Assembly: GCA_039545335.1 (NCBI GenBank)
Contig: BCIN01000008.1
Span: 300,363-320,362, forward strand
DNA: 20,000 bases
Direction: 5' to 3'
DNA from: Kondoa subrosea
Lineage: Eukaryota
The notes beneath the pieces are model-generated. The model was not told the DNA's origin, searched no databases, and worked only from the letters and a program-made list of their open reading frames with translations. Below, piece after piece: positions 1-18,057 of the stretch (positions are counted from its first letter, which is position 1; the number at the start of each line of letters is the position of its first letter). The position numbers and the translations under genes are program-made.

Positions 1-1821
1 TGTCCCTGTCGAAGCGAGTCTTCGTACAGGTAGAGACGGCACACCATTTCCGCAGGGTTCCCGGAGTCTCCACCAGCTGATTCAAAAGCTTCGTCCGCTC
101 CTGACACTGATGATAGCGATCATGGCATGTCCAGATGTGGTCGTGGATTAAGCTATCGGTAGCGGAGAGAAACCAACAGTGAGGGCAGCCCTTTGCTTTC
201 CTTCTGTTCCGATCGCGAAGATCGATTCCACGGTTCACTATGGACAAATTCTCCTGCTTGAGATGCGCAAGCTTGAAATGCTGCTCCAATATCAGCCAGG
301 CGGGATCATCGATAGCGCGTGTAGGGTAGCAAGGTGTGACATAATCACAAAGTGTAGCTGTAAGCTGTCCTCGTTTGTCTAGATCCTTCTCTTCCGCATG
401 GCAATGGTATCCTACGAAGGGCGGCGTTGTATGCTTTGTAGCAAATGCGTGATCTTCTATCTCCTTCCTACTTGATGAGAATTCTCTACAGCCTTGACTA
501 GAACAGTACCATATTTGCGTTGGTCGATCGTGTATCAGAGCGTGGAGGGCCGAAGTAACAGTGCTCTCCGATTTGAGAGAATGCTTTCCGTAGACGGCTG
601 GCGCGAAGTATGGGTGAGCAGCACCTTGATTATCTACCAAATGCATGAGCTTGGGGACATAACACAACTCCAGACCATACAGGGCGGATGTGGATGCTCG
701 ACAGAGGCCCCACGGAATTGCTGATGATCTGCAAAATGCATCAGTCTGCGAACATATTAATCAGCAAGGCTTGAGATCCGAAGACACACAAGGGAGTTCT
801 TGCGAATTGCGGACGTTTTGATTTTGGACGTGCTGAGGAGGCTGAGAGATGTGTGATGCTGAAACCGAAGTTAAGAGACATGCAGTCGCAATTGCAGAAA
901 AGAAAACAAACGTTCAGGATGAGATCCAGCTGAACCATGATCATGATTTTCGAGATGGCCTCTAGGCTGGAACGTGACTGGAGGATGGATGGGCTGGGTG
1001 CTAGAACCAGCACCGCCTGGATAGTTTGACAATTGTCAGCGGGGAAAGTGAAATCCGAGGCCCTAATACCTGCTGTGAAGCTTGAGTACTGCGACTGTTT
1101 ATTCGAGCTTCAATTTCGGACTATAGCCAAAGTATATGCATACCTGAGCAAGGGTGGCTATTGATCATTCCTCAAACGTTATCCTCATATAAAATTGACC
1201 TTCACGTACTAGAAGTTGCATCCGGACGACAAGTCAGCGCTCCGATATCTTGAAGATTGGAAAATGGATGTCCGAATGCGTCAGCAGCCCCTATTATTCG
1301 ATACGACATCGTGATCGGCATAAGTTTCCCAAGCCCGCGATCAACCTACCTGCTGCATATTGCTGATATGAATGCTAACCATGCAGTATTAGCTCTTTAA
1401 TTCAATATACAACAGGCCTACAGGAGCCGGTACACCTTTCGGAAGAACATGTCAGAAGCAGTCATCCTGGTATCAAATCCGACTAACCAGAATTTCCACC
1501 ATTGTGAGTATTCATTGGACTCATGGAGCGAATGTTACTGGGCGCGACATGTCCAGGTTTGTCAGCACCGCCTCCAGAACAAATGGTAAGTATCCATCTT
1601 CGGGAACGGATTTCATTCTACCTGTTTGGAATTGATGATGCTCAGGTTGATATTGAGGCTATTGCCGGTTAGCATCATCATATAGAGGGTTCTAGTAGAA
1701 GAGGCATACCGGAGGTTGAACTATCGATATCACAATAACTCAGAAGTCATCTTCGAGCAAAATAGCCCGACTCACTAGCATTGCCATGTTTGTCGTGAGT
1801 TGATCCTTGGGCGTCGTTCAT
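1..1821 (-). CDS. C2H2-type zinc-finger protein with a Q/P/H-rich, micro-exon-encoded N-terminus; 3' end runs off the window
   Basis: Manual splicing gives exons 1821-1776, 1720-1710, 1658-1622, 1571-1488, 1435-1422, 1374-1350, 1290-1210, 1157-1144, 1094-1070, 1016-912, 858-790, 728-681 and 633-<1, all GT-AG and in frame. The last exon is open to the window edge. It encodes CSSQGC-x12-HAFATKH, CPHC-x12-HIWTCH, a degenerate YHC...LCDY...HFKLAH finger and a further CAVSTC at the edge. The ORF track misses it because there is no stop in the window. The start codon and small exons are less certain than the finger exon. Confidence 0.7.
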
Positions 1822-2455: not shown

Positions 2456-3109
2456 TTAGATGAAGCCAATCTATCAGCCATCGTCAGTGTCTACTTCTTC
2501 AATCACAAGTATAAACCAACCTTGTTAGCGACATCCAAAGCATCAACGTCAGGTAGCAGTCTAATGAATGCCTTTTTCTTTCCATCCGGGCTGTACATTC
2601 GCTTGTGATCAGGCTTGTCAAGCTTTACGAGAACAAGGCCGCTCACCGAATGAGAGTGTTGATTGAAGCAGCCTCAACATCGTACAACTTCTTGATGGCC
2701 TGCTTGATGTGCCTCTTGTTTGCTTTGATGTCGACAAGGAAGACGAGGGTGTTGTTGTCTTCGATCTTCTTCATTGCGCTTTCAGTGCAAAGAGGTTGGA
2801 CAATAGTCCTGTAACATAACCAGCACATTGAGCTCTCGTACTCTTGAATTGCCTGCAAATTTCATTTTTGACAAACCTGTACTGGTCCATTCTTGGTGCA
2901 TGAGGAATGCTCTTTCGTGGGTACTTGGGTTTACGAGCAAGGCGAAGAGTAGTAGGGCGGTGGAAAGTGGTGCTGGTGCGAACCTTTCGCGAAGTGTGAG
3001 ATCCTGTTCCCTTCAAAGCGGCCTTCTTTGCTGCTTTCGCTTTGGCATCTTGTGGTTTAGTAGCAGAGCTCTTGCCCTTGGAGCTCTTGGTATCAGCCTT
3101 GCTGGACAT
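2456..3109 (-). CDS. RPL25: 60S ribosomal protein L25 / L23a (uL23), 159 aa, 4 exons
   Basis: Exons 3109-2877, 2808-2647, 2590-2521, 2470-2456. Family motifs: [74 protein letters not shown]. Confidence 0.97.
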
Positions 3110-3679
3110 ATTAGGGAGTTCGAAGAGTTTCTCGACGAGGGGAAATTGCTCTTTGAAATCCGTCGGATTTGCCGGGACTTGATGCCGGTCGCTCTGTAGG
3201 AGAGTGGAAGAGGCTCTTCCCTTCCTGCCTCTCTCTCCATCTCTCTTTAAGAGGGTCTTCGCTGGATCTGGCTCGCACACAGAGCGCACTCTAGAGTTCT
3301 CAATTTTCTTCACTTTATGCTACAGTATAGGCTTTTGTCAATTCCGCAAGCAGCGCTGCTCTATATGTTTGCTTCTCTCCTCCTTCTCATCCTTGTCTTC
3401 ATCATGTCACCGCCCTCGAGCGAAAAGCTTTACTTTGTTTTCTGTCACCTACCTTGTAAAAGCGCGTCGCATGAGCTGTCAAATGCGTTACGTAGTTCTC
3501 ACTCGTCATCACTCTGTATCATACGGCGGATCTTGCTCAAGATGCTTCTCACATGTTAACCTTACTAATTGTGGTTATGTTATTTTTGGTCACTGATCAG
3601 TGATTAATAAACAATCACGCCTATCCGCTCAAGCATGCTTTGCCCCTGTACAACCACTTCTTCCAGTAGTGAAATCAAT

Positions 3680-4495: not shown

Positions 4496-4638
4496 ACGTC
4501 AAGCCCAGCGATAGTAAAGAAAGTGTTATACTTTGTACCGACTGTTTATAAGCGTTAGATAATCGATAATTGATAAGCCAGAGACATTTCCGACTTGACG
4601 CTTTCGAAGTTCATATATCCCTTCATCTGTTAGTAACG

Positions 4639-5415
4639 ATGGCCTTTGACAAGTCTGCGAATCAGTTGCTGGAAGCAATCTTTGGCTGTATAGAAGACGA
4701 CATTATACCCAAGACTAGAGAACGCGTCAAGGCCGGGTGCAAAGTGTTTGGAGCGGCAATCTTGCGAAAGAGTGATCTAGGACTAGTACGTTGTCATGAA
4801 CGATGCAAAGATCAAAAGATCATCTCTACACAGGTGATTGCAGAAACCAACAATGAAATCACTCAGCCGCTCTTTCACGGAGAGGTCCATTGCATCTTCT
4901 GCTATAACAACTTACCTAATCGACCCTCTCCAAAAGACTGCATCTTCGTAACAACGCATGAACCATGCAGCCTTTGTCTATCTGCAATCACTTGGTCTGG
5001 CTTTGATAACTTTGTTTACCTGTTCTCGTCAGTGATATCCTCATTCTCGATTCGACTTGAGCTGATATCGTAGTCCAGATACGAAGACACTAGAGATGCA
5101 TTTCAAATACCATACGATATTCAAGTCAGTCCGTCGCCAGGTACTTAAAGGCAATCACTGACGAGGCAGCAGATACTCGAAGCGGTATACAAAGTGCAAG
5201 GGAAAGAAGAGAAGGAAGACTTCGATCAACGACTCTTGTACAATAGAGAGAACGCTTTCTTCAAAGCGTTGAGCGTAGCGGATTTGATAGCGAAGCTGGA
5301 ACCTAAAGAGCAAGAACGTTTTCAAAGGAGGAAAGCAAAGCTGAATGAAGAGTATGCAAAGTTGTCCGAAGTGTACCAGAGCAGCAAAGGAAATGCTGGC
5401 ATTCCACTAGCGTGA
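4639..5415 (+). CDS. Zn-dependent cytidine-deaminase-fold nucleoside deaminase, 209 aa, 4 exons; substrate unknown
   Basis: Exons 4639-4785, 4834-5027, 5079-5124, 5173-5415 (630 nt). The last acceptor is a CAGCAG NAGNAG. Catalytic motifs HGE and THEPCSLC (HxE...PCxxC), with an upstream FGAAIL. Confidence 0.9.
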
Positions 5416-7713: not shown

Positions 7714-9087
7714 ATGTCACAGTTTCGAGCTGGAAAGACTAATGAAGCAGAAAGCAGAGCCCCTCTGACTAAGATCCAAACGACTTCGCAATCGAAAACT
7801 ACTACTTTCAAGCCTACTCGGCCTGCCTCCAATGCTGTCCCTTCCTCTTCCACTTCTCGTTCTGTTCCATCTTCCCAATCTTCTGTCGCATCTTCTTCTC
7901 AGCCTGTTGCGGCTCCTTCGTTAGATTTCGGTCGGTATGACGGAGGCTTGGAAAGGGATGAGGCAGCTGCTAGAGGTGATGTGATTGAAGGTGAAGCGGC
8001 AACGGAATTGGCATTGGATTCTAGCTCTTCAAAGTGTGTCACTTCACTGCTCTTGTCTTTACCGAACTAATTGTACAAAAAGATTGACTCGCCCAACGAA
8101 ACCTTGGAAATTTTCAGATTTCGAACTAGGTCGTGCTCTAGGCAAAGGCAAATTCGGCAGAGTTTATATGGTCCGAACAAAACATACAGAACCTCAATAC
8201 ATTCTCGCTCTGAAGTGCTTATACAAATCAGAACTCGTCAAGGATAAAGTAGAGAAACAGACACGAAGGGAAATCGAAATCCAATCGAATCTTCGACATC
8301 CTCATATCCTTAGACTGCATGGTTATTTTCATGACGAAAAGCGGATCTTCTTGATGCTTGAGTTTGCTGGAAAGGGAGAACTGTATAAGCAATTGTCGAA
8401 ACATGGCAAGTTCAGCGAAAAGAGATCGTCAAGGGTCAGTGCAGGTCATAAGCTCTATCAGTCTATCGCTGATTCAAAGGTTACCGCATCTGACAGTACA
8501 TCGCGCAAATGGCCGACGCCTTGCAATATTTGCATAAGAAACATGTCATTCATCGAGACATCAAACCTGAGAACATTCTGCTTGGCCTGAATGGTGATTT
8601 GAAGATAGGCGACTTCGGTTGGTCAGTGCATGCTCCGTCAGATCGGTGAGCTATTTCCCATCTGATCGAGGTCGAGCTGAAAACATTGATAGTCGATCAA
8701 CACTTTGCGGAACTCTCGATTACCTACCTCCGGAAATGGTCGAGGGCAAACATCATACAAGAGAAGTCGATCTTTGGGCACTAGGAGTATTGACGTATGA
8801 ATTCTTGGTCGGCGCTCCACCTTTTGAAGAGCTCAGTGGGGCGCAAGCGACCTACAAGAGGATAGCGAAAGTCGATTTGAAGATCCCCGAGACTGTTTCG
8901 GCTGAAGCAAAGGATTTGATAAAGAGTGTGAGTTGAATATCATACGGATAAGACGTAGGCTGATGTGATGCAACAGCTCTTGCGACATGATCCTGAAGAT
9001 CGCTTGCCGATAGCAGATGTATTGAGGCATCCTTGGATACTAAAGTATAAGAAGACGAAAGACTCGCAACAGCTGGAAGCAATCTAG
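7714..9087 (+). CDS. IPL1: Aurora serine/threonine kinase (Ipl1/Ark1-like), 388 aa, 5 exons
   Basis: Exons 7714-8033, 8083-8434, 8497-8645, 8693-8927, 8977-9087 (1167 nt). Motifs [62 protein letters not shown]. Confidence 0.96.
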
Positions 9088-9366: not shown

Positions 9367-11281
9367 ATGAGCGCCGTCAAAGAAGCCACTGCGGCCTCCA
9401 AGAAGCAGTCTGATGAAGTGTTCAAGATTCTCAGAGCTCAAAAGGCCAATAAGGTTAGTCTGCCACGCTTGAAGCATGCTGTCCATGCTGAATTATCGAA
9501 TTCGCCAGATGTGCTTTGATTGTAAGTCTACATGCATCTAACCATTTGCGGGCCTAGCTAAAAGGATACTTACAGGCCAAGCAAAGAATCCTACTTGGTC
9601 CAGTGTTACTTTTGGCGTTTATATCTGGTGAGCGCGACAGATAGTCAAAGTCTTGCTCGAGCTAAGCTTTCCTCTAGCTTGGACTGCTCAAGCAATCACC
9701 GCAATTATGGTGTCCATGTATCCTTTGTCAGGTCGACCAATCTCGATCTATGGCAGTACCAACAACTGCGCACGATGAAAGTCGGCGGCAACGCTTCTTT
9801 TAGCGAATTCTTAGCTCGTCATCCTGGCAGCGCTAGTAGTGGTAACGTCAAAGACAAATATACTTCAGCAACAGCTACCAAATACAAGGAGGAACTAGGC
9901 AAAAGAGCAGCTGCTGATTTAGCGCAATTTGGTATCGGTCACGTTGTTTTAGCGGACAGCGGTGTAGATATCGGCGGAGCTCTGGTAGTGGACGACAAGG
10001 ATGGAAGCAAGGATGATTTCTTCGAATCTTGGGATAAGCCAGCAGTACCAAAACCACTCAAAAACGATGCGACTGCTCCTCCTCCTCAAATCTCTCTTAC
10101 GCCAAATTCTTCTCGTCCTGCAACACCCAGAGCTTCTTCACCTGCTCCTCCTACTCCTACTGAAGCAACTAAACCAGTTGCACCTACAGCTCCCCGAACG
10201 GTCTCTTCTTCCGCTTTACGAAACGCTACACCAGCTACCGCAGGTGGTCGAGCAAAACTTGGTTCTCGTCTCAACTCAGCATCCAGTATCACAGGCTCAA
10301 CTACTTCCACAAACGCAGTAGGAGGTTCTAAATCGAAACTAGGAGCAAAGAAAGCAAACGTGACTATTAATTTCGAAGAAGCAGAACGAAAAGCTAAAGA
10401 AGAAGAAGAAAGGATCAAGAAGTTAGGATATGATTCGATCAGAGAAGCAGAGGAAGCTAGCAAGAAACAAAAAGAAGCTCAGAATGCTGCTATGGCTCAA
10501 GCGGCTAGAGATAATGCTGCTGCTTCTGCTGCTGGAAAACATCAGAGAAAGACTAGCGATAATGAACGATTGGGGATGGGCATGGGACGATTAGGGTTTG
10601 GTCAGACTATGGGTGTTAGTGGAGAAGAAAGCGCGAGGTTGGCTGCTCAAGCCAAGAAAGCTGCGGATAGAAAAGCTGCTGGATATGATGATGGTACGTC
10701 AAGACCGCTCACATGCGATGAGGATCGCTCATCAGCACCGACTGTTTCTCGCACAGATGCGCCTGCCGATATTCCTACTTATGCAAGAGAGAAGTTTTCA
10801 GCTCAGAAGGGCATATCGTCGGACCAATACTTTGGTCGCAACTCCTATGATCCCGAAGCTGCTCGAAACGCTCAATCTCGTTTAGCGCAATTCGCAGGAG
10901 CTACATCGATCTCTTCTAATCAAGTTAGTTATTCTATAGAAAGTTGCATTTTGTGCTGAGCCTCTTTTGCAGTACCATGGCATCAATGAAGATGAAGCCG
11001 ATTTGGAAGAGTCTATATTGAACGGAGATTCACTAAGTAGTCTAGAACTTGGAGCTAGACAATTGGCGAAGACAGCAATGCAAAGCGCTGGATATGAAGA
11101 TATCAACCAGTTGAAGGATGCTGTAAGAGATGGAGCACTCAAAGTGAGTATACTTGTCCACATAACTATTATCAGCGCTGATCTTGTTCATTTATCAGCT
11201 GGGCGATTTCTTGCAGCGAGTAAGTCTGAAACTGTTTATGCCAGGAATTTGCTAATCTCTGCGCGATTGTAGTATGCATAG
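9367..11281 (+). CDS. GLO3: ADP-ribosylation factor GTPase-activating protein, Glo3/ArfGAP2-3 type, 511 aa, 8 exons
   Basis: Exons 9367-9453, 9509-9521, 9576-9627, 9678-10693, 10757-10923, 10973-11143, 11199-11219, 11273-11281 (1536 nt). Zinc finger CFDC-x16-CLDC followed by HRNYGVHVSFVRSTNLD. C-terminal Glo3 motif KGISSDQYFG...ATSISSNQY. Confidence 0.93.
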
Positions 11282-11486
11282 AGTGTTGCAGATATAGGAT
11301 GATAGAGGAACATATTGCATATCGTATCTCGTTTCAGTGACAGCACGTTCCGAAAATCTTTACAAGCTTGTTCTGCATACGCGAGGTTTCTTTCACTAAA
11401 CTTTAAGAAAATCTGCCTTGTCGCTCTCTTTGGCTTTCTGTATTTGGAAAGAAGAGGGATGAGCCTGTTCTGGCCTTTGGGTGTGC

Positions 11487-12473
11487 ATGGAAGTCGAGCA
11501 GACGCGCACGAGTGAATCAGATGAGAATCGAAGACAACTGGATTCAGCCAAAGAACAGATCGCTCTGGCGGCTGCGGGCTCCCACACAGCTGCACACACA
11601 GTCGTTGTGCCCAACACAAACAATGCAAGCACAACTTCAGCTGGAGGCAGCAATAGAAGACCATTCATTGTTCCAACAATTATACATACAGATGGCATCA
11701 AAGAAGTACCTCGACGCTTCGAACAGTGTGATATAGAAGAATTGGTTGTACTCATAGGTGAATCCAAGTATCCATCGTTGGTTCGGCTCTTAAAGCTAAA
11801 TCTGTTCGTGAAAGCTGGCATGCTAGACAGACTTATCAAGCACAACGATCAAATTCCACTCACTCAAACTTCTCTCACTCGCTTTCATTCACGCGCACCA
11901 CCTGGCATTTCAGTGCATGATTATCTTCTTCGCATCACTCGTTATACAAATGTCGAAGCATGCTGTCTCTTGATTCTCCTACACTATATCGATAAGATCA
12001 CTGAACGACTAGCGGCCTTTACCATCTCAAGTTTAACAGTACATCGGTTTCTGATTGCGGGAGTCGCTTGTGGAAGTAAAGCGTTAAGCGATAGTTTTTG
12101 CACCAATGGAAGATATGCAAAAGTAGGAGGTGTATCCTTAGCGGAAGTCAATCTATTAGAAAAGGAGTTCTTGGCTGCTATAGATTGGAGATTGACAGTA
12201 AGCTTTCTTTTATCCCTCCTTCTCAAAGTAACACCGCTGACTTATGCATTGATTTAGACAAGTGGAACACTTCTTGCCCAGTATTATACATCACTCGTCC
12301 AATCTAATCCGGCCTTTCGACTAGCAGAAGTCGAGGTCACGCAGCCACCAAATTCATCAGGAATCGATCCAGACACATTATCAACTGCAGGAACTTTGGC
12401 AAACGGTCACACAGAAGGAAAAGAGGATGGCAGGCAGGAAAAAAGAGAAACAGACAAAGAGGGTTGGGAATAA
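11487..12473 (+). CDS. Pho80/Pcl-family (Preg-like) cyclin, 289 aa, 3 exons
   Basis: Exons 11487-11757, 11815-12197, 12258-12473 (870 nt). Cyclin box motifs LTRFHSRAPPGISVHDYLLRI, SLTVHRFLIA, KALSDSFCTNGRYAKVGGVSLAEVNLLEKEFL. Confidence 0.9.
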
Positions 12474-12694: not shown

Positions 12695-15600
12695 TCAATA
12701 AATGGGTAGCGGTGTAGGAGTGAAGCCAACAGGTATAACGTAGTGCTTCTCAGGTGCTGGAGGCTTGGTACTGTTCCGTTGGTTGAAGGGGATGACTAGC
12801 GCAACAAAATTAGCCGAGCGAACACCAACAGTAGTAACAGCTGCGACGAACTAGATACCGTTACATTAAAGCCTGGAGTTCCGTTATCGCTTGTTCGCTC
12901 TGGGTGGGACGCGTTGAATGCCAGCGGTTGGAAGCATGTCATGCCATAGCAATTGCCAACGATACTTGAATTCGCACCAAAAGGAACGCTAAGGGTGACG
13001 TTGTGAGAAGAAGCTGCGATTAGCCAATCCTTCATCACGGCAGGTGTAGGGTTGCCATAGAGTGAAATCAGATATGCTTTCATGCCGGCAACTACAGGAG
13101 TAGCCACTGATAGACAGTAAAGTCAGTTCAGTTTATTCCGAGCATTGGCAAAGAGAAGACGTACTGCTGGTTCCGGACAATTCAGCGCCAATGTCTGGAC
13201 CACCAATCCAATCGGAGAAGATACCAGATCCAGGAGCCCAGATATCGACAGAGCCACCCCAATTCGAAAAGGGACTTGAGTCATCTTTCTGAGTTATTGA
13301 TCCGACAGTAGTAACTTCAGCGACTCGACCAGGCGAATAAAGTGAAGCATCATCGGCGTTATTGCCAGCAGCGATCGTACTTTCGGTAGAAGACCGTGAG
13401 CATCATCAATATATAGTCATGGAAAGTGAGGAGACATACACGTGAATGCCTTTTTTGGTCAAAGCTCTACAGGCAGCGTCCAGTCCAGAATTGGGCGGTC
13501 CAGAGAAAGACAAGGAGACGACTGAAGGTTTTTTAGTCTTCCTTGCTACCGTTGCGACACTGTCAAACGTAACTTCAGCAGAGGCCAGTGCGCAAGTACC
13601 GAATACCCACTAATTCAGTCCTTTGACAATGTCAGCGCTTGATCCTCCGCCGTCATCGCCAAAGACTTTGATACCGAGGATTCTTGCTTTCTTAGCGACA
13701 CCATACTTTGTTCCAGCTGCCACACCAGCACAGAAAGTCCCATGACCGTTTCCGTCTTTTAGCTAATGGTAGGTATTTAGAAATCTGCCGAAGGCTCAAA
13801 GAATATGATGTCCTACTGCATAACCACCAAAGGCCTTTAAAAACTTCACTCTGCCACCAAAATCTTGGTGACCTGTGTAGATTCCAGTATCGCTACAGCC
13901 AGGAATATCAGCAAACGGATTCAAGAAAGAGATACAGAGAACACACAGCAAAAAGATATCAACACCTGCACCGGCTGTTCCATTGTAGTAGTAATTCGGG
14001 GTACTCTTGTTCGTGACAGTGACATTTGACGAAGCGCGGATCAGGTGCCATGGAGCTGCTTTTTGGGTCAGGATGGGCTGCACTGCACCAGCAATGAACC
14101 CAAGAGAATCAGCGCTGATGCTCTCGACTTCTGCTTTGGCAGTGACAGCATCGAGAATGACACCACGGAGAATTGCCTGAATCTTGCGTCAAGTAACGTA
14201 GAAACTTGTTTCAAAAGGGAGACTTACAGTGTAGATACCGAAACCAGGATAGACATCAACAGGTCCAGAACCACTTCCACCGTCGGTTGTTCCAGCCGGA
14301 CCATCATATGCATCGTGCGGGACGTAAGCTGTGGGAACAGGTGGTGGTAGATCTGGTGCAAAGGGATCAGCGGCAGTCGGGTCATAGCCAGGGGATCCGG
14401 GTCCAGTATAAGGTGTGCCACTGTAGCAAGAAGTCAGGATCAGCGTATAATAGCGCAAACGGGACAACCAACTCTGCGTTGATCTTCGAAGGAGTTCCGT
14501 CAGGATTCACTGGACCTGGAACACACTATCAGCTCCGTAATGTCTTCTCAGCGAAGTGACCAACCTGGATAGGGTGTGCCTAGCAGGGTTATGGATTAGT
14601 TTGATGTCTAGCAAAGCAGATAAATTCGTACCATCGGGTAATGTGGGCACAGGCTGAAAAACGAGTAATCAGCACAACCGCTTTACTAGCTGAAGAGGTG
14701 AGACATACTGGAACATAGGGCGTGCCGCTGTTTCATAATCAGCCGAGTGCCGGGTAAGATACTCAGAGACACCTACTCGTAGTTGAGCTTTGAAGGTGTT
14801 CCACTGTTGCTTAAAGGTCAGCACTTATACAGATGAGGATGAAAGGAGGACAACGAACTCCTCGTTTGTCGGTCCAGAGTACGTAGTTCCCTGTTGAAAG
14901 CCAGTTCAGTCTCCAGAAATTACTGGATGCAAGCAAGACCGACATCTGGATTGAGGAAAGGGACCGGAACATAGGGCGAGCCACTGCAATATGACTCAGC
15001 TTAAAAGTGAAAACATTGTATTGATCGGCTTACTCTGCGTTGACTGTACTCCAAGTACCACTGTTCATGAAAAGGTCAGCAATCTGGTGTTTTGGCATCA
15101 GACGAAGCTGCGTACTCTGCGTTCAAAGGACCTGCAAAGGTTGTGTTAGCTACTGTTCTGAGCACACGAGGAAGTTAGAGCTTGCCTGTGTAGGTACTTC
15201 CCTAAATATAAATCAGAGCGTCAGCTTTCTGAGTATAGGTAGATGGAGAGGTTGCTTACATCTCTGTTCGTCTTTGGGATAGGCACAAATGGAGTTCCGC
15301 TAGAGAGAATCTTAGCAACAACTAGCGGGATCGCAATAGAATACCTACTCAGGATAGGTGGCAGAAGGGTAACCATCTGCAGTGAGAGGACCGCTGTATA
15401 CCGAACCATCTCCGTTACGGTATATGCCATCTGAAAGCGATATATTAGATTCCCGGTCAAATCGCTAGTACGCAAGGCAAACTGACCAACACCCATACCA
15501 GGACCATATACTACTGGTGCAGGTGGAATGGAAGATGCTATAGTTATTTGCTTTATTCAGCGAGAGGTTTGATACTGCATGAGCGGAGAGCAACTCACAG

Positions 15601-18057
15601 CTCCCATCTGTAGTCGTGCTGCCATCTGCTGGCGTGCTACCATCTGCTGTCCCACTTCCGGAGTCAGTCGTAGAATCAGAAGCTGTAGTGCTTCCATCAT
15701 CTGTTGTTGAACCAGAAGCCGATGTGCTACCAGAAGCTGGAACATCTGAACAGAAGAATCAGCACCTACTCTGCAAGAAATCAAAGCAACTTGCAGCCTG
15801 GATAGTAGTAAGGTGTTCCATCGCTGAGAAAATATCAGCGATTTGCTTCAATATATTTTAGAGACGGACTCACGGGTTGAGAATAGCGATAGAACCATCA
15901 GGATTCACCGGACCTTCACAGGAGGAATATAGAATCAGTATCGGTTAATGATCTGCATAAGAATCGACTTACCAGTGTAAGGGGTACCATCCGCGTTGTA
16001 AGCTGGAGGTGGCACATATGTTGTTCCGCTGCAACGATACTTCAGATACAAAGAAGATATCAATTGAGATATCGCTCACTCATCGTTGATCTTGGACGGG
16101 GATCCCTGTATTCATTGAGCGTGTCAGATGCGAGGAAGGAGATTTTTTTTGGGCCGGAAACGTACATCTGCATTCAACGGGCCTGGAGGACGGGAAAGAC
16201 CAGTTCAGCTACTTATTTCTTCATCAAGTCAACGCTACATACCAGCATATGTAGTTCCCTGAAGGAAAAAGAAATATCAGTAACGCAATATAGTTATTAC
16301 AAAGATAACGAACATCAGGATTCAGTGCGACTGGTGGCGTATAGGGTGATCCACTGTGCTTAGGGATCAGAATAGGAGGTCGCATTCGATCGGGAAGAGA
16401 GCACTGACTCAGCATTGACCAATGAGGGCGTTCCGTCTGGGTTGACAGGTCCTGCGAGAGCAGTTCAGCTTGTGGTATACAGCAGAAGCAAGGCACAAGA
16501 CTGACCTCCATACAAAGTGCCGTCTCTGTTGAGCGCTGGAGTTGGCACATATGGTGTTCCGCTGCAACGATACTTCAGATTGAAAGAGATATCAAGTGAG
16601 ATATCGCTCACTCGTCGTTGATCTTGGACGGTGATCCCTAGAGTCATGAAGCGTGTCAGATGTGAGGAAGGAGAATTTTCGGCGGACACGTACATCTGCA
16701 TTCACTGGGCCTGGAAGACGGGAAAGACCAGTTCAGCTACTTATTCTTCCACCAAGTCAACGCTACATACCGGCATACGTAGTTCCCTGAAGGAGAAAGA
16801 AATATCAGTAACGTAATATAGTTGTGACGAAGGTAACGAACATCAGGGTTCAGTGCAACTGGGGGCGTATAGGGTGATCCACTGTGCTTAGTGATCAGAA
16901 TAGGAGGTCACAATCAATTCAAAAGCAAGCACTCACTCAGCATTGACCAATGAGGGCGTTCCGTCTTCGTTGACAGGTCCTGCGAGAGCAATTCAGCTCG
17001 TAGCATACAGCAGAAGCAAGGCACAAGACTGACCTCCATACAAACTTCCATCTCTGTTGTACGCTGGAGGACTAAAGCAGATGTAAGTACAAAGAATATA
17101 GGTCAGAAAGTCAAACAAGACTTACGGAACATATGGATCGCCAGAGGCATCCACTTTGGACATTGTACCATCAGGGTTCTATGTATTGAGCGCATGTGTC
17201 AGACGGTGTCCATCAGAAAGGACTATTGACTGACAACTGGACCAGTGTAAGGCGTTCCTGTTGACACAGATTAGTGCAGTCAAATAAAACTTGATAGGAA
17301 GATACGGACCATCTCTGTTCATTGGCACCGGTCTGTAAAGAGGAATATCAGCGTCCGTTAATTGTTACCAACCAAGTTCACAAACGGAATGTATAACGAG
17401 CCGCTGAACAGGAAGTCAGCGACAGCCTAGAGCAACATCAGTGCCACGTACTCTGCGTTGTAAGCTGATGGAGTGCCATCGGGATTAAGAGGACCTGTAT
17501 GAATGTGTGAGCGTTGCTCAACAAGATATGCCAGCGAATGATGAACCTTGATACGCAGAACCATCTGGATTCGTGAACGGAACTGCAAGAAAGGTTTAAG
17601 TGACTGTCGCCAGAGAATGGCTGAAGAACCCACTTGGAGCTGGGTAAGGGCTTGGAGGTCCTCCATTGGCAGCAATAGCATCTACAGAGCTTCTCAGCAC
17701 TTTGATGCCGGGTCTTGTGCCAAAAGACTGACCGTATAGCCATGCCAAATGCTTGTCCATATCAGAACCTCCAGTTAAGACGACTAAAAACAAATCAGGT
17801 TGACCAGGTCCACCGACTGCACGAGTTGAAAGATGATGATGGCTTGCAGTTGTTGAATTGGCATAGTATTCTTGAGATTTATACTCTTGACTGAAAGTTG
17901 GCGCAGCCACTACAGGTTCCGAGTAGCTGGCCAGCAGCACAATGACAAAGAGTGGTCCCAAGAGCTGGTTGAAGACACATTGCAAGACCACAAAGAGAGC
18001 AGTTCGACTGCACTTTGGCGCGAGCATTTGAGGGCCGGCCCTCTTGTAGTAGTCCAT
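12695..18057 (-). CDS. Proteinase K-family subtilase (peptidase S8A) with a repeat-interrupted I9-like propeptide; about 996 aa, 45 exons
   Basis: Exons: 18057-17733, 17681-17634, 17582-17547, 17494-17452, 17403-17386, 17332-17310, 17257-17235, 17178-17126, 17071-17034, 16979-16937, 16881-16842, 16786-16771, 16710-16694, 16637-16612, 16561-16506, 16451-16409, 16353-16314, 16258-16243, 16182-16166, 16105-16080, 16028-15973, 15913-15874, 15823-15795, 15745-15599, 15537-15487, 15430-15349, 15299-15260, 15201-15186, 15131-15116, 15060-15034, 14983-14944, 14890-14859, 14803-14777, 14727-14709, 14653-14632, 14579-14565, 14515-14473, 14420-14228, 14176-13947, 13892-13817, 13762-13611, 13559-13440, 13379-13165, 13106-12852, 12795-12695. 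Total 2991 nt with all phases consistent. Catalytic triad LDTG (Asp 13891-13889), DGNGHGTFCAG (His 13744-13742), SGTSMATP (Ser 13168-13166), plus oxyanion AAGN. Mature start resembles TQKAAPWHLIR. The frame of the last exon and the start codon are less certain. Confidence 0.85.
14390..17571 (-). repeat. Protein-level tandem repeat: 11 copies (7+4) of a 33-aa unit NxDG(S/T)xYxGP(V/L)-NxDGTPSxx-NxDG(S/T)PYxPPxxx
   Basis: Visible only after splicing, e.g. NRDGSLYGGPV NEDGTPSLV NADGSPYTPPVAL and NPDGTTYSGPT NEDGTPSKL NYDGTPYVPPVPT. The 11+9+13 aa spacing holds in all copies. Confidence 0.88.
16011..17070. repeat. Direct tandem DNA duplication, two copies of about 530 bp (16011-16543 and 16544-17070), covering six exons and six introns
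   Basis: Near-identical segments offset by 528-533 bp, e.g. ccgctgcaacgatacttcagat (~16026 and ~16559), cgggaaagaccagttcagctacttatt (~16191 and ~16719) and cagcagaagcaaggcacaagactgacctccatacaaa (~16480 and ~17008). Confidence 0.95.

Follow-up and report, generated by a model that had tools for sequence, protein, structure and literature searches.

I9-type propeptides are a textbook example of an intramolecular chaperone. In canonical fungal subtilases, such as proteinase K (1ic6) and P0014, a basidiomycete protein of 400 amino acids (aa) that matches both PF05922 and PF00082, the propeptide is one block of ~80 aa that is detected by Pfam. It lies between a signal peptide and a TQ..APW mature start, which is followed by the catalytic D/H/N/S residues. 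Here we describe a gene of Kondoa subrosea encoded on the minus strand of a 20,000-nucleotide (nt) stretch of contig BCIN01000008.1 (GenBank assembly GCA_039545335.1, positions 300,363 to 320,362; hereafter the window). The predicted product shares the S8 core and the order of parts with the canonical enzymes, but has ~470 aa between what appear to be helix 1 and strand 2 of the propeptide. It is probably a secreted proteinase-K-type subtilase precursor with a long acidic low-complexity module that interrupts an I9-type propeptide after the GG turn at the end of helix 1. Also unlike canonical fungal subtilases, it has HGTFCA in place of HGTH, and both a GNC....TCF loop and a Pro-rich tail after the core.

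Other described subtilases provide points of comparison. PCSK9 is a eukaryotic proteinase-K-clade subtilase, although not a degradative protease, and its prodomain stays bound. The PCSK9 prodomain has an acidic disordered stretch that modulates function, but this sits at the N-terminal end of the prodomain and not within the fold. The propeptides of the bacterial/archaeal proteins pro-subtilisin E and pro-Tk-subtilisin are continuous; they serve as intramolecular chaperones and temporary inhibitors, and are self-cleaved. PMC10580911 also treats this subject. In the passages of PMC5371821 that concern Inhibitor_I9, propeptides and architecture, only the canonical N-terminal I9 is described, and our literature searches on the architecture, mostly at abstract level, recovered no account of an I9 propeptide with an interruption. 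A 963-aa protease of Glaciozyma antarctica was considered as a precedent and rejected. According to the relevant passages of PMC4100274, it has conserved glycines at 142-327; these place its catalytic domain near the N-terminus, and the architecture is thus a different, pyrolysin-like one. A preliminary description of the Kondoa subrosea locus did not recognise the arrangement. This agrees with the literature that we searched, but the split architecture is already present in deposited Sporidiobolales proteins, where it carries generic labels and is unremarked.

To identify relatives, the 120-aa piece encoded by exons 39-40 was compared with 1.84 billion representatives using HMMER. This returned 24 matches, the best full-length of which are Sporobolomyces and Rhodosporidiobolus proteins. 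A protein search with exon 39 for longer proteins gave 277 candidates, none of them at E <= 0.001. Five Sporidiobolales proteins, from Sporobolomyces pararoseus (P0010), S. carnicolor (P0025), S. koalae (P0026), S. blumeae (P0027) and S. johnsonii (P0013), contain a leader, an N-terminal I9-type segment (hereafter the stub), an insert, a C-terminal I9-type segment (the C-half) and the S8 domain, all in one protein. The database labels are "hypothetical protein" or, for P0026, "S8 family peptidase", and no propeptide is annotated. A partial Rhodosporidiobolus protein (P0028) begins inside the stub and has an insert of 137 aa.

In these relatives the insert is preceded by RRAV.GPGP.ATY.VVLA.G.NLASH.AWL..GIA.NGG and followed by WDGP.GT.DG...VSWSD...GMYVAVLQGV...V..VATDDD, and then by the S8 domain. 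The parts shared with Kondoa subrosea are RAV.GPG...VVL..G....H.AWL...IA.NGG before the insert and (W/Y)DGP.GT.DG...G.Y.A.L.G after it. Identity to P0010 is 20/38 in the stub, 26/61 in the C-half and 136/274 in S8 (~50% for the S8 domain of the Sporobolomyces relatives). The inserts themselves are shorter than that of Kondoa subrosea (87-132 aa) and Gly-rich, consisting of Gly/Asp/Ser/Glu/Ala low-complexity sequence without DG...PY repeats. The halves are conserved and the insert is compositionally different, so the flanks have been kept while the insert was replaced. Across the family, the insert keeps just its place, its length class and a mostly acidic, flexible character. The intron-rich gene probably comes from within Pucciniomycotina, from a relative of Sporidiobolales yeasts.

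Several further observations concern the matched proteins. P0007, P0029, P0032, P0002, P0004, P0009 and P0023 begin with a Met just before or inside the C-half (MSGPWDG..., MGIYTA..., MYVA...), and look like truncated gene calls that miss the stub and the insert. In P0010, P0025-P0027 and P0013 an RR (residues ~50-55) stands just before AV.GPG and is a possible dibasic site; aa 78-80 of the Kondoa subrosea protein have TR. The matches to the 120-aa query with the top score or with multiple stretches are two giant proteins: P0001 (4941 aa), matched in 15 stretches, and P0003 (3519 aa), matched in 10, at 25-29% identity. Both probably have a repetitive or multi-domain make-up and no relation to the family. 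Two metagenome loci were rejected as relatives, since tblastn with the gene model gave a single match of 11 residues in L001 and no match in L002.

The preliminary description had proposed that two segments of the Kondoa subrosea protein are halves of one I9 domain with an insertion in a loop. Both segments and the mature-type start that it reported are present, at the end of exon 1, from aa 604 and from aa 651, and the span that it gave for the insertion (residues ~109-603) equals the numbering of our independently built model; the splicing must therefore be the same in that part. Exon 1 ends at 17733 with ...PDLFLVVLTGGSDMDKHLAWLY (...HLAWLY, aa 108), followed by a GTCAGT donor. Removal of intron 1 (17732-17682) yields HLAWLYDAIAANGGPPS; its alignment with the relatives' HLAWLSQGIAENGGPES is free of gaps. 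The stub comprises RAVGGPG, a predicted strand 1 (LFLVVL) and a predicted helix 1 (DKHLAWLYDAIAANGG), and aa 79-116 read RAVGGPGQPDLFLVVLTGGSDMDKHLAWLYDAIAANGG. The C-half reads YDGPAGTTDG...PVDVYPGFGIYTAILRGVILDAVTAKAEVESISADSLGFIAGAVQPIL, with predicted strand 2 (PVDVY), strand 3 (GIYTAIL), helix 2 (VILDAVTAKA) and strand 4 (VESISAD) in this order, and a linker that leads to the presumed cleavage site. The segment VDVYPGFGIYT|AILRGVILDAVTAKAEVESISADSL begins at aa 604, 497 residues past L107, and TQKAAPWHLIR begins at aa 651. The C-half is directly N-terminal to the mature-type start of the S8 domain, with ...VESISADSLGFIAGAVQPIL immediately preceding TQKAAPWHLIRAS.

Alignment places the two halves where an I9 domain would have them. 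In an unsupervised MAFFT alignment of 55 proteins, the stub falls under canonical strand 1 and helix 1 (YIV.LK...H), up to the conserved GG turn, with TYVVVLAAGVNLASH beneath canonical SYIVKLKDGVEKSAH and ENGG beneath the canonical ...YGG turn. The C-half falls under strands 2 and 3, helix 2 and strand 4, with VSWSD...GMYVAVLQG... beneath PEWES...GFAGTFN.... Comparison by hhalign of six-sequence family profiles with a canonical I9 profile gave P values of 1.5e-3 for the stub (template 36-53), 1.2e-3 for the C-half (69-101) and 5e-4 for the joined halves (36-101), all collinear. In a custom I9 hidden Markov model (HMM) built from 23 canonical propeptides, positions 27-46 match the stub and positions 66-96 the C-half, in the expected order but at low scores. 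For the 39-aa stub, the three best named clusters in the ESM Atlas are all PF05922, at scores (0.76-0.78) that lie below the 0.9 bar and make this a lead only.

Structure prediction for P0010 is consistent with one folded domain. The AlphaFold2 model, run with the MAFFT alignment (A1), has a strand at 61-67 and a helix at 73-88 in the N-terminal half (10-residue block means of the predicted local distance difference test, pLDDT, of 92, 89 and 65 over 61-90), then residues 89-218 at pLDDT below 50, and then strands at 221-226 and 231-236, a helix at 238-246 and a strand at 250-255 at pLDDT 85-90, a value that holds for residues 221-261, the equivalent of the C-half. The predicted topology is thus that of I9, and the loop that follows helix 1 is disordered. 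Foldseek matches were re-aligned structurally. Mature proteinase K (1ic6) aligns at 277 of 279 residues with model residues 276..559 (Z 45.9, root-mean-square deviation, rmsd, 1.4). The proforms, which are ~25% identical, superpose from residue 59 to ~562 (335-345 aligned, Z 39-43): unprocessed pro-subtilisin E (3whi_B) has 335 residues aligned over 59..562 (Z 43.1, rmsd 2.5), and pro-Tk-subtilisin (2e1p, 2z2z) has 340-344 aligned over 59..564 (Z 39-40). Relative to the mature enzyme, the proforms add 58-68 aligned residues, starting exactly at the stub (residue 59). The IS1 insertion of 3whi is engineered, according to the title of the entry. Single-chain PCSK9 constructs (5vlh, 5vlp) align with residues 25/60 to 555 of the model (324-325 aligned, Z 41-42). 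The ESM Atlas has its own model of P0010, made from the single sequence and independent of alignment A1; in it, 83-86 residues over 54/59-269 match I9 clusters, below the bar of that tool. Two further predictions were uninformative. AlphaFold with only 10 family sequences gave a mean pLDDT of 33 and left the S8 core unfolded too, so that it is no control, and prediction of a complex between P0010 residues 50-100 and 215-560, in which the alignment was not used, scored 0.09 (mark 0.34) and gives no support either way.

The preliminary description had also called the Asp-His-Ser triad intact, and this is borne out: D692, H723 and S878 were located in order, and the DTG, HGT and GTSMA motifs and the oxyanion Asn are all intact. 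PF00082 matched two of three exon pieces above the cut-off of 21.8 bits (33.8 and 33.7 bits) and the third below it (16.5 bits). By this score and these motifs the product is assigned to the proteinase-K subfamily of S8, and a proteinase-K-like fold is predicted, judged on the model of P0010 with its 50% identical core. The His motif is HGTFCA in Kondoa subrosea and the Sporidiobolales clade, where the usual form is HGTH. A GNC....TCF Cys-loop lies just after the S8 core (12934-12951, minus strand) and is common to P0007, P0010 and the Sporidiobolales relatives.

The gene model was built from the genomic DNA letters alone, using a splice-site dynamic programme followed by hand curation. The longest open frame over the region is at most 159 aa, so the gene must be spliced. 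The curated model gives a single frame of 2991 nt (996 codons and a stop), from an ATG at 18057-18055 to a stop at 12697-12695. A second in-frame ATG at 18027 is the likelier start, as the Sporidiobolales relatives begin at the matching position; the hydrophobic leader aligns with their N-terminal MLAS... leaders. All 44 introns are 48-61 nt long, 42 of them GT-AG and two GC-AG. The GC-AG introns, at 15794-15746 (GCAAGT, 49 nt) and 15185-15132 (GCAAGC, 54 nt) on the minus strand, have good branch sites, and removal of both is required because the repeat frame otherwise closes. Confidence in the model is lowest for the last intron (12851-12796) and the C-terminal tail. Pro-rich tails are also present in the relatives, but are not alignable with the PLPIY tail. 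The features of the window are listed in Table 1.

Table 1. Features of the Kondoa subrosea window (positions count from the first letter of the window).
Feature	Position	Strand	Extent, content or basis
Whole gene	12695..18057	-	Predicted 45 exons, 44 introns, 996-aa product; hand-curated model
Presumed signal peptide	17947..18057	-	aa 1/11 to ~37; hydrophobic N-terminus, read from sequence
N-terminal I9-type half (stub)	17634..17823	-	aa 79-125; exon 1 end, intron 1, exon 2
Insert	14318..17582	-	~470 aa of acidic repeats; 35 short exons and first part of exon 38
Recent tandem duplication within insert	15914..16979	-	Two ~528-538-nt units, introns copied too
Ser/Thr/Asp/Gly-rich linker exon mid-insert	15599..15745	-	aa 358-407; curated model
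C-terminal I9-type half	14069..14317	-	aa 585-650; interrupted by intron 14227-14177
Proteinase-K-type S8 domain	12852..14068	-	aa 651 to ~930, exons 39-44; PF00082, residue map
Catalytic D692	13891-13889	-	Within LLDTG
Catalytic H723	13744-13742	-	Within GHGTF
Oxyanion N813	13363-13361	-	Within AAGNN
Catalytic S878	13168-13166	-	Within GTSMA
Last exon, Pro-rich tail	12695..12795	-	Ends PLPIY and stop; splice-site dynamic programme only
PHO80-type cyclin match (PF08613)	11463-12257	+	Open frame
ArfGap match	9562-10959	+	Open frame
Protein kinase match	7985-8590	+	Open frame
Cytidine/deoxycytidylate deaminase match	4570-5073	+	Open frame
Ribosomal L23 N-terminal match	2771-3319	-	Open frame

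The genomic neighbourhood of the gene is ordinary eukaryotic housekeeping, with no other protease or repeat gene.

The exon chain across the insert was compared with chance expectation under one constant rule: an intron had to be 45-65 nt long and to score at least 7, as does the weakest of the model's 34 introns in the repeat region. On the real strand this rule gives a stop-free path across the entire 3074-nt repeat region, whereas the open path on the opposite strand is only 139 nt and 30/30 shuffles reach just 26-515 nt. Retention of an intron would disrupt the frame for 42 of the 44 (in-frame stops in 33, a frameshift in 9) and be neutral for two. Skipping of micro-exons, as in the micro-exon genes of schistosomes, was considered and rejected: the majority of the exons have a length that is not divisible by three, and loss of a single one would break the frame.

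The insert is built from repeat units of 9-13 aa, each of which opens with DG (DG.PY.P.P..N., DG..Y.GP.N. or DG.PS..NA), with 39 DG motifs in 507 aa. Its composition is P 19%, G 13%, T 11%, D 10%, S 9% and Y 7%, with a net charge of -39. Of its 35 short exons, 34 are 15-82 nt long and one is 147 nt. There is approximately one micro-exon per repeat unit (36 exons, median 36 nt); DG occurs within 2 aa of 21/36 exon junctions, and the repeat motif is restored across junctions. Introns stand at recurrent sites of the repeat, D|G or after Y.G (14473-17582, minus strand). The intron positions are part of the repeat, and thus the array seems to have grown by duplication of exon plus intron units of roughly 70-110 nt. 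Our literature search on fungal micro-exon repeat genes, at abstract level, found no such array. The linker exon contains a tandem repeat of period 18 nt (15600-15649, 2.8 copies, Tandem Repeats Finder).

Within the insert, each of the two recently duplicated units encodes 66 aa in six exons. Three repeat families (D1-D3) have 83-89% identity at a spacing of 528-533, with copies at 15984-16447 and 16517-16975, and the units are 85% identical in exons and 83% in introns. All 28 gap columns are intronic and none is exonic, and the 66 aligned codons differ by 14 synonymous and 8 non-synonymous changes. The duplicated units carry a coding signature, on the basis of one pair of copies, and the repeat peptide seems to be under some constraint in this gene.

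From what is known of the family, the propeptide would assist folding, be self-cleaved and inhibit transiently. After entry into the endoplasmic reticulum, the stub and the C-half would pack as one I9 domain on the S8 core, as in the P0010 model, and the insert would form a flexible tether that loops out into the solvent and is probably glycosylated. The assembled domain would chaperone folding, the enzyme would cut itself near ...AGAVQPIL/TQKAAPW, and the propeptide would remain bound as a transient inhibitor and later be degraded. Our best guess is that the insert represents an expansion tolerated by the loop and is lost together with the propeptide, and that it is its bulk acidic, disordered and protease-accessible character that matters. 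Persistence of only its place, length class and acidic flexible character fits a tolerated, fast-evolving loop. As a working guess, the exposed insert may be cut first, leaving the I9 domain in two pieces and speeding release of the active enzyme.

The I9-type assignment is drawn from the predicted fold of P0010 and from collinear alignment, and several results weigh against it. PF05922 gave no match at E up to 10, either in the Kondoa subrosea gene scanned as exon pieces (the stub, the exon-38 piece and the exon 39-40 piece) or in P0010, P0013, P0007, P0021 and P0017. The gathering score of 21.2 bits, which canonical P0014 exceeds (31.9 bits), was therefore missed; an insert of 90-470 aa is too long for the profile to span, and the fragment P0004 reaches 14.7 bits (E 0.05) over profile positions 49-78 only. 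Scores with the custom HMM are 0.3-8.5 bits, and the joined halves score 5.2 bits where shuffled stubs give a mean of 4.8 +/- 0.15 and a maximum of 6.0, so that HMMER cannot distinguish the Kondoa subrosea stub from noise. The P values from hhalign are modest and come from pairwise comparison. The AlphaFold model is not fully independent, since the stub was paired with canonical I9 from the outset in alignment A1, and the fold is predicted for P0010, a relative with 43-53% identity. The unrelated sequences of the relatives' inserts are also compatible with neutral expansion, and the notion of the insert as a cleavable weak point is a guess. Taken together, conservation, the MAFFT and hhalign alignments and the P0010 model support two halves of one I9 domain, although no single sequence score is strong.

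Three other explanations were weighed. The one with the most weight, which we nevertheless consider improbable, is that the stub lies outside the propeptide fold, that the protease has just a truncated, half I9-like segment, and that stub and repeats form an independent N-terminal extension, for example for wall anchoring or adhesion, in which a short motif resembles YIVVL...H..W by coincidence. This would account for the 0.3 bits of the stub on the custom HMM without gain over shuffles, the lack of a Pfam I9 call and the Atlas scores under the bar. However, the stub is the best conserved part ahead of S8 despite the unrelated inserts, its alignment to strand 1, helix 1 and the GG turn has the correct order and register, and in P0010 it is modelled as a strand and helix at pLDDT ~90 beside 130 disordered residues, from where the superpositions with the proforms begin. 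We also know of no precedent for a lone three-stranded half I9.

Quite unlikely, in our view, is a split I9 domain of which the insert is a cargo that is released by protease processing: an adhesive, matrix, cross-linkable Tyr/Pro-rich or metal-binding product. The apparent constraint on the repeat peptide (the synonymous excess and the lack of exon indels) would fit such a role, as would a regular motif in which the positions of Tyr, Pro, Asn and Asp are constant and an array 4-5x longer than the inserts of the relatives; against it, those inserts are Gly-rich and different, so that no specific peptide is conserved across the family, and dibasic or other recognisable processing sites are lacking in the insert as read from the sequence. 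The explanation with the least weight, and a very improbable one, is that two genes or a mis-joined model are involved, with a secreted repeat protein upstream of a subtilase, or with an array that is largely non-coding and spliced out as one or a few large introns. The model does depend on splice-site rules that we chose, and 36 micro-exons in a row are unusual for a fungal gene. Yet the spliced frame is stop-free, and neither the opposite strand nor any of the shuffles has such an open path; exon junctions restore the repeat motif, and repeat indels fall only in introns, with an excess of synonymous changes. The C-half is preceded by no Met in frame just upstream, so that the S8 part alone would have no signal peptide, and the relatives keep stub and S8 in one protein.

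A broader version of the split-propeptide reading extends to the clade. It is conceivable, but we hold it only tentatively and think it rather unlikely, that in a Pucciniomycotina clade the turn between helix 1 and strand 2 of I9 is a hot spot for lineage-specific, fast-evolving acidic modules, of which the DG/Pro/Tyr micro-exon array would here be a selected case, acting as a proteolytic fuse or as a released or wall-tethering product. As a fuse, a single cut in the loop would halve the inhibitor and so set the time or place of activation. The preliminary description had suggested that the propeptide might be a released effector, a surface or matrix tether, or a ligand-gated inhibitor.

The practical consequence of these findings is modest. 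A split propeptide would explain why annotation misses the propeptide and S8 is the only domain that Pfam gives. Gene finders and annotation pipelines will probably cut such genes short or break them up (compare P0007, P0029 and P0032). Tandem duplication of units made of a micro-exon and a short intron would be an unusual route to a repeat in a fungus. If the two halves do form one domain across 90-470 disordered residues, the I9 fold would tolerate a very long tether at the turn between helix 1 and strand 2, and these proteins may offer a natural test of how the continuity of a propeptide affects folding, inhibition and release.

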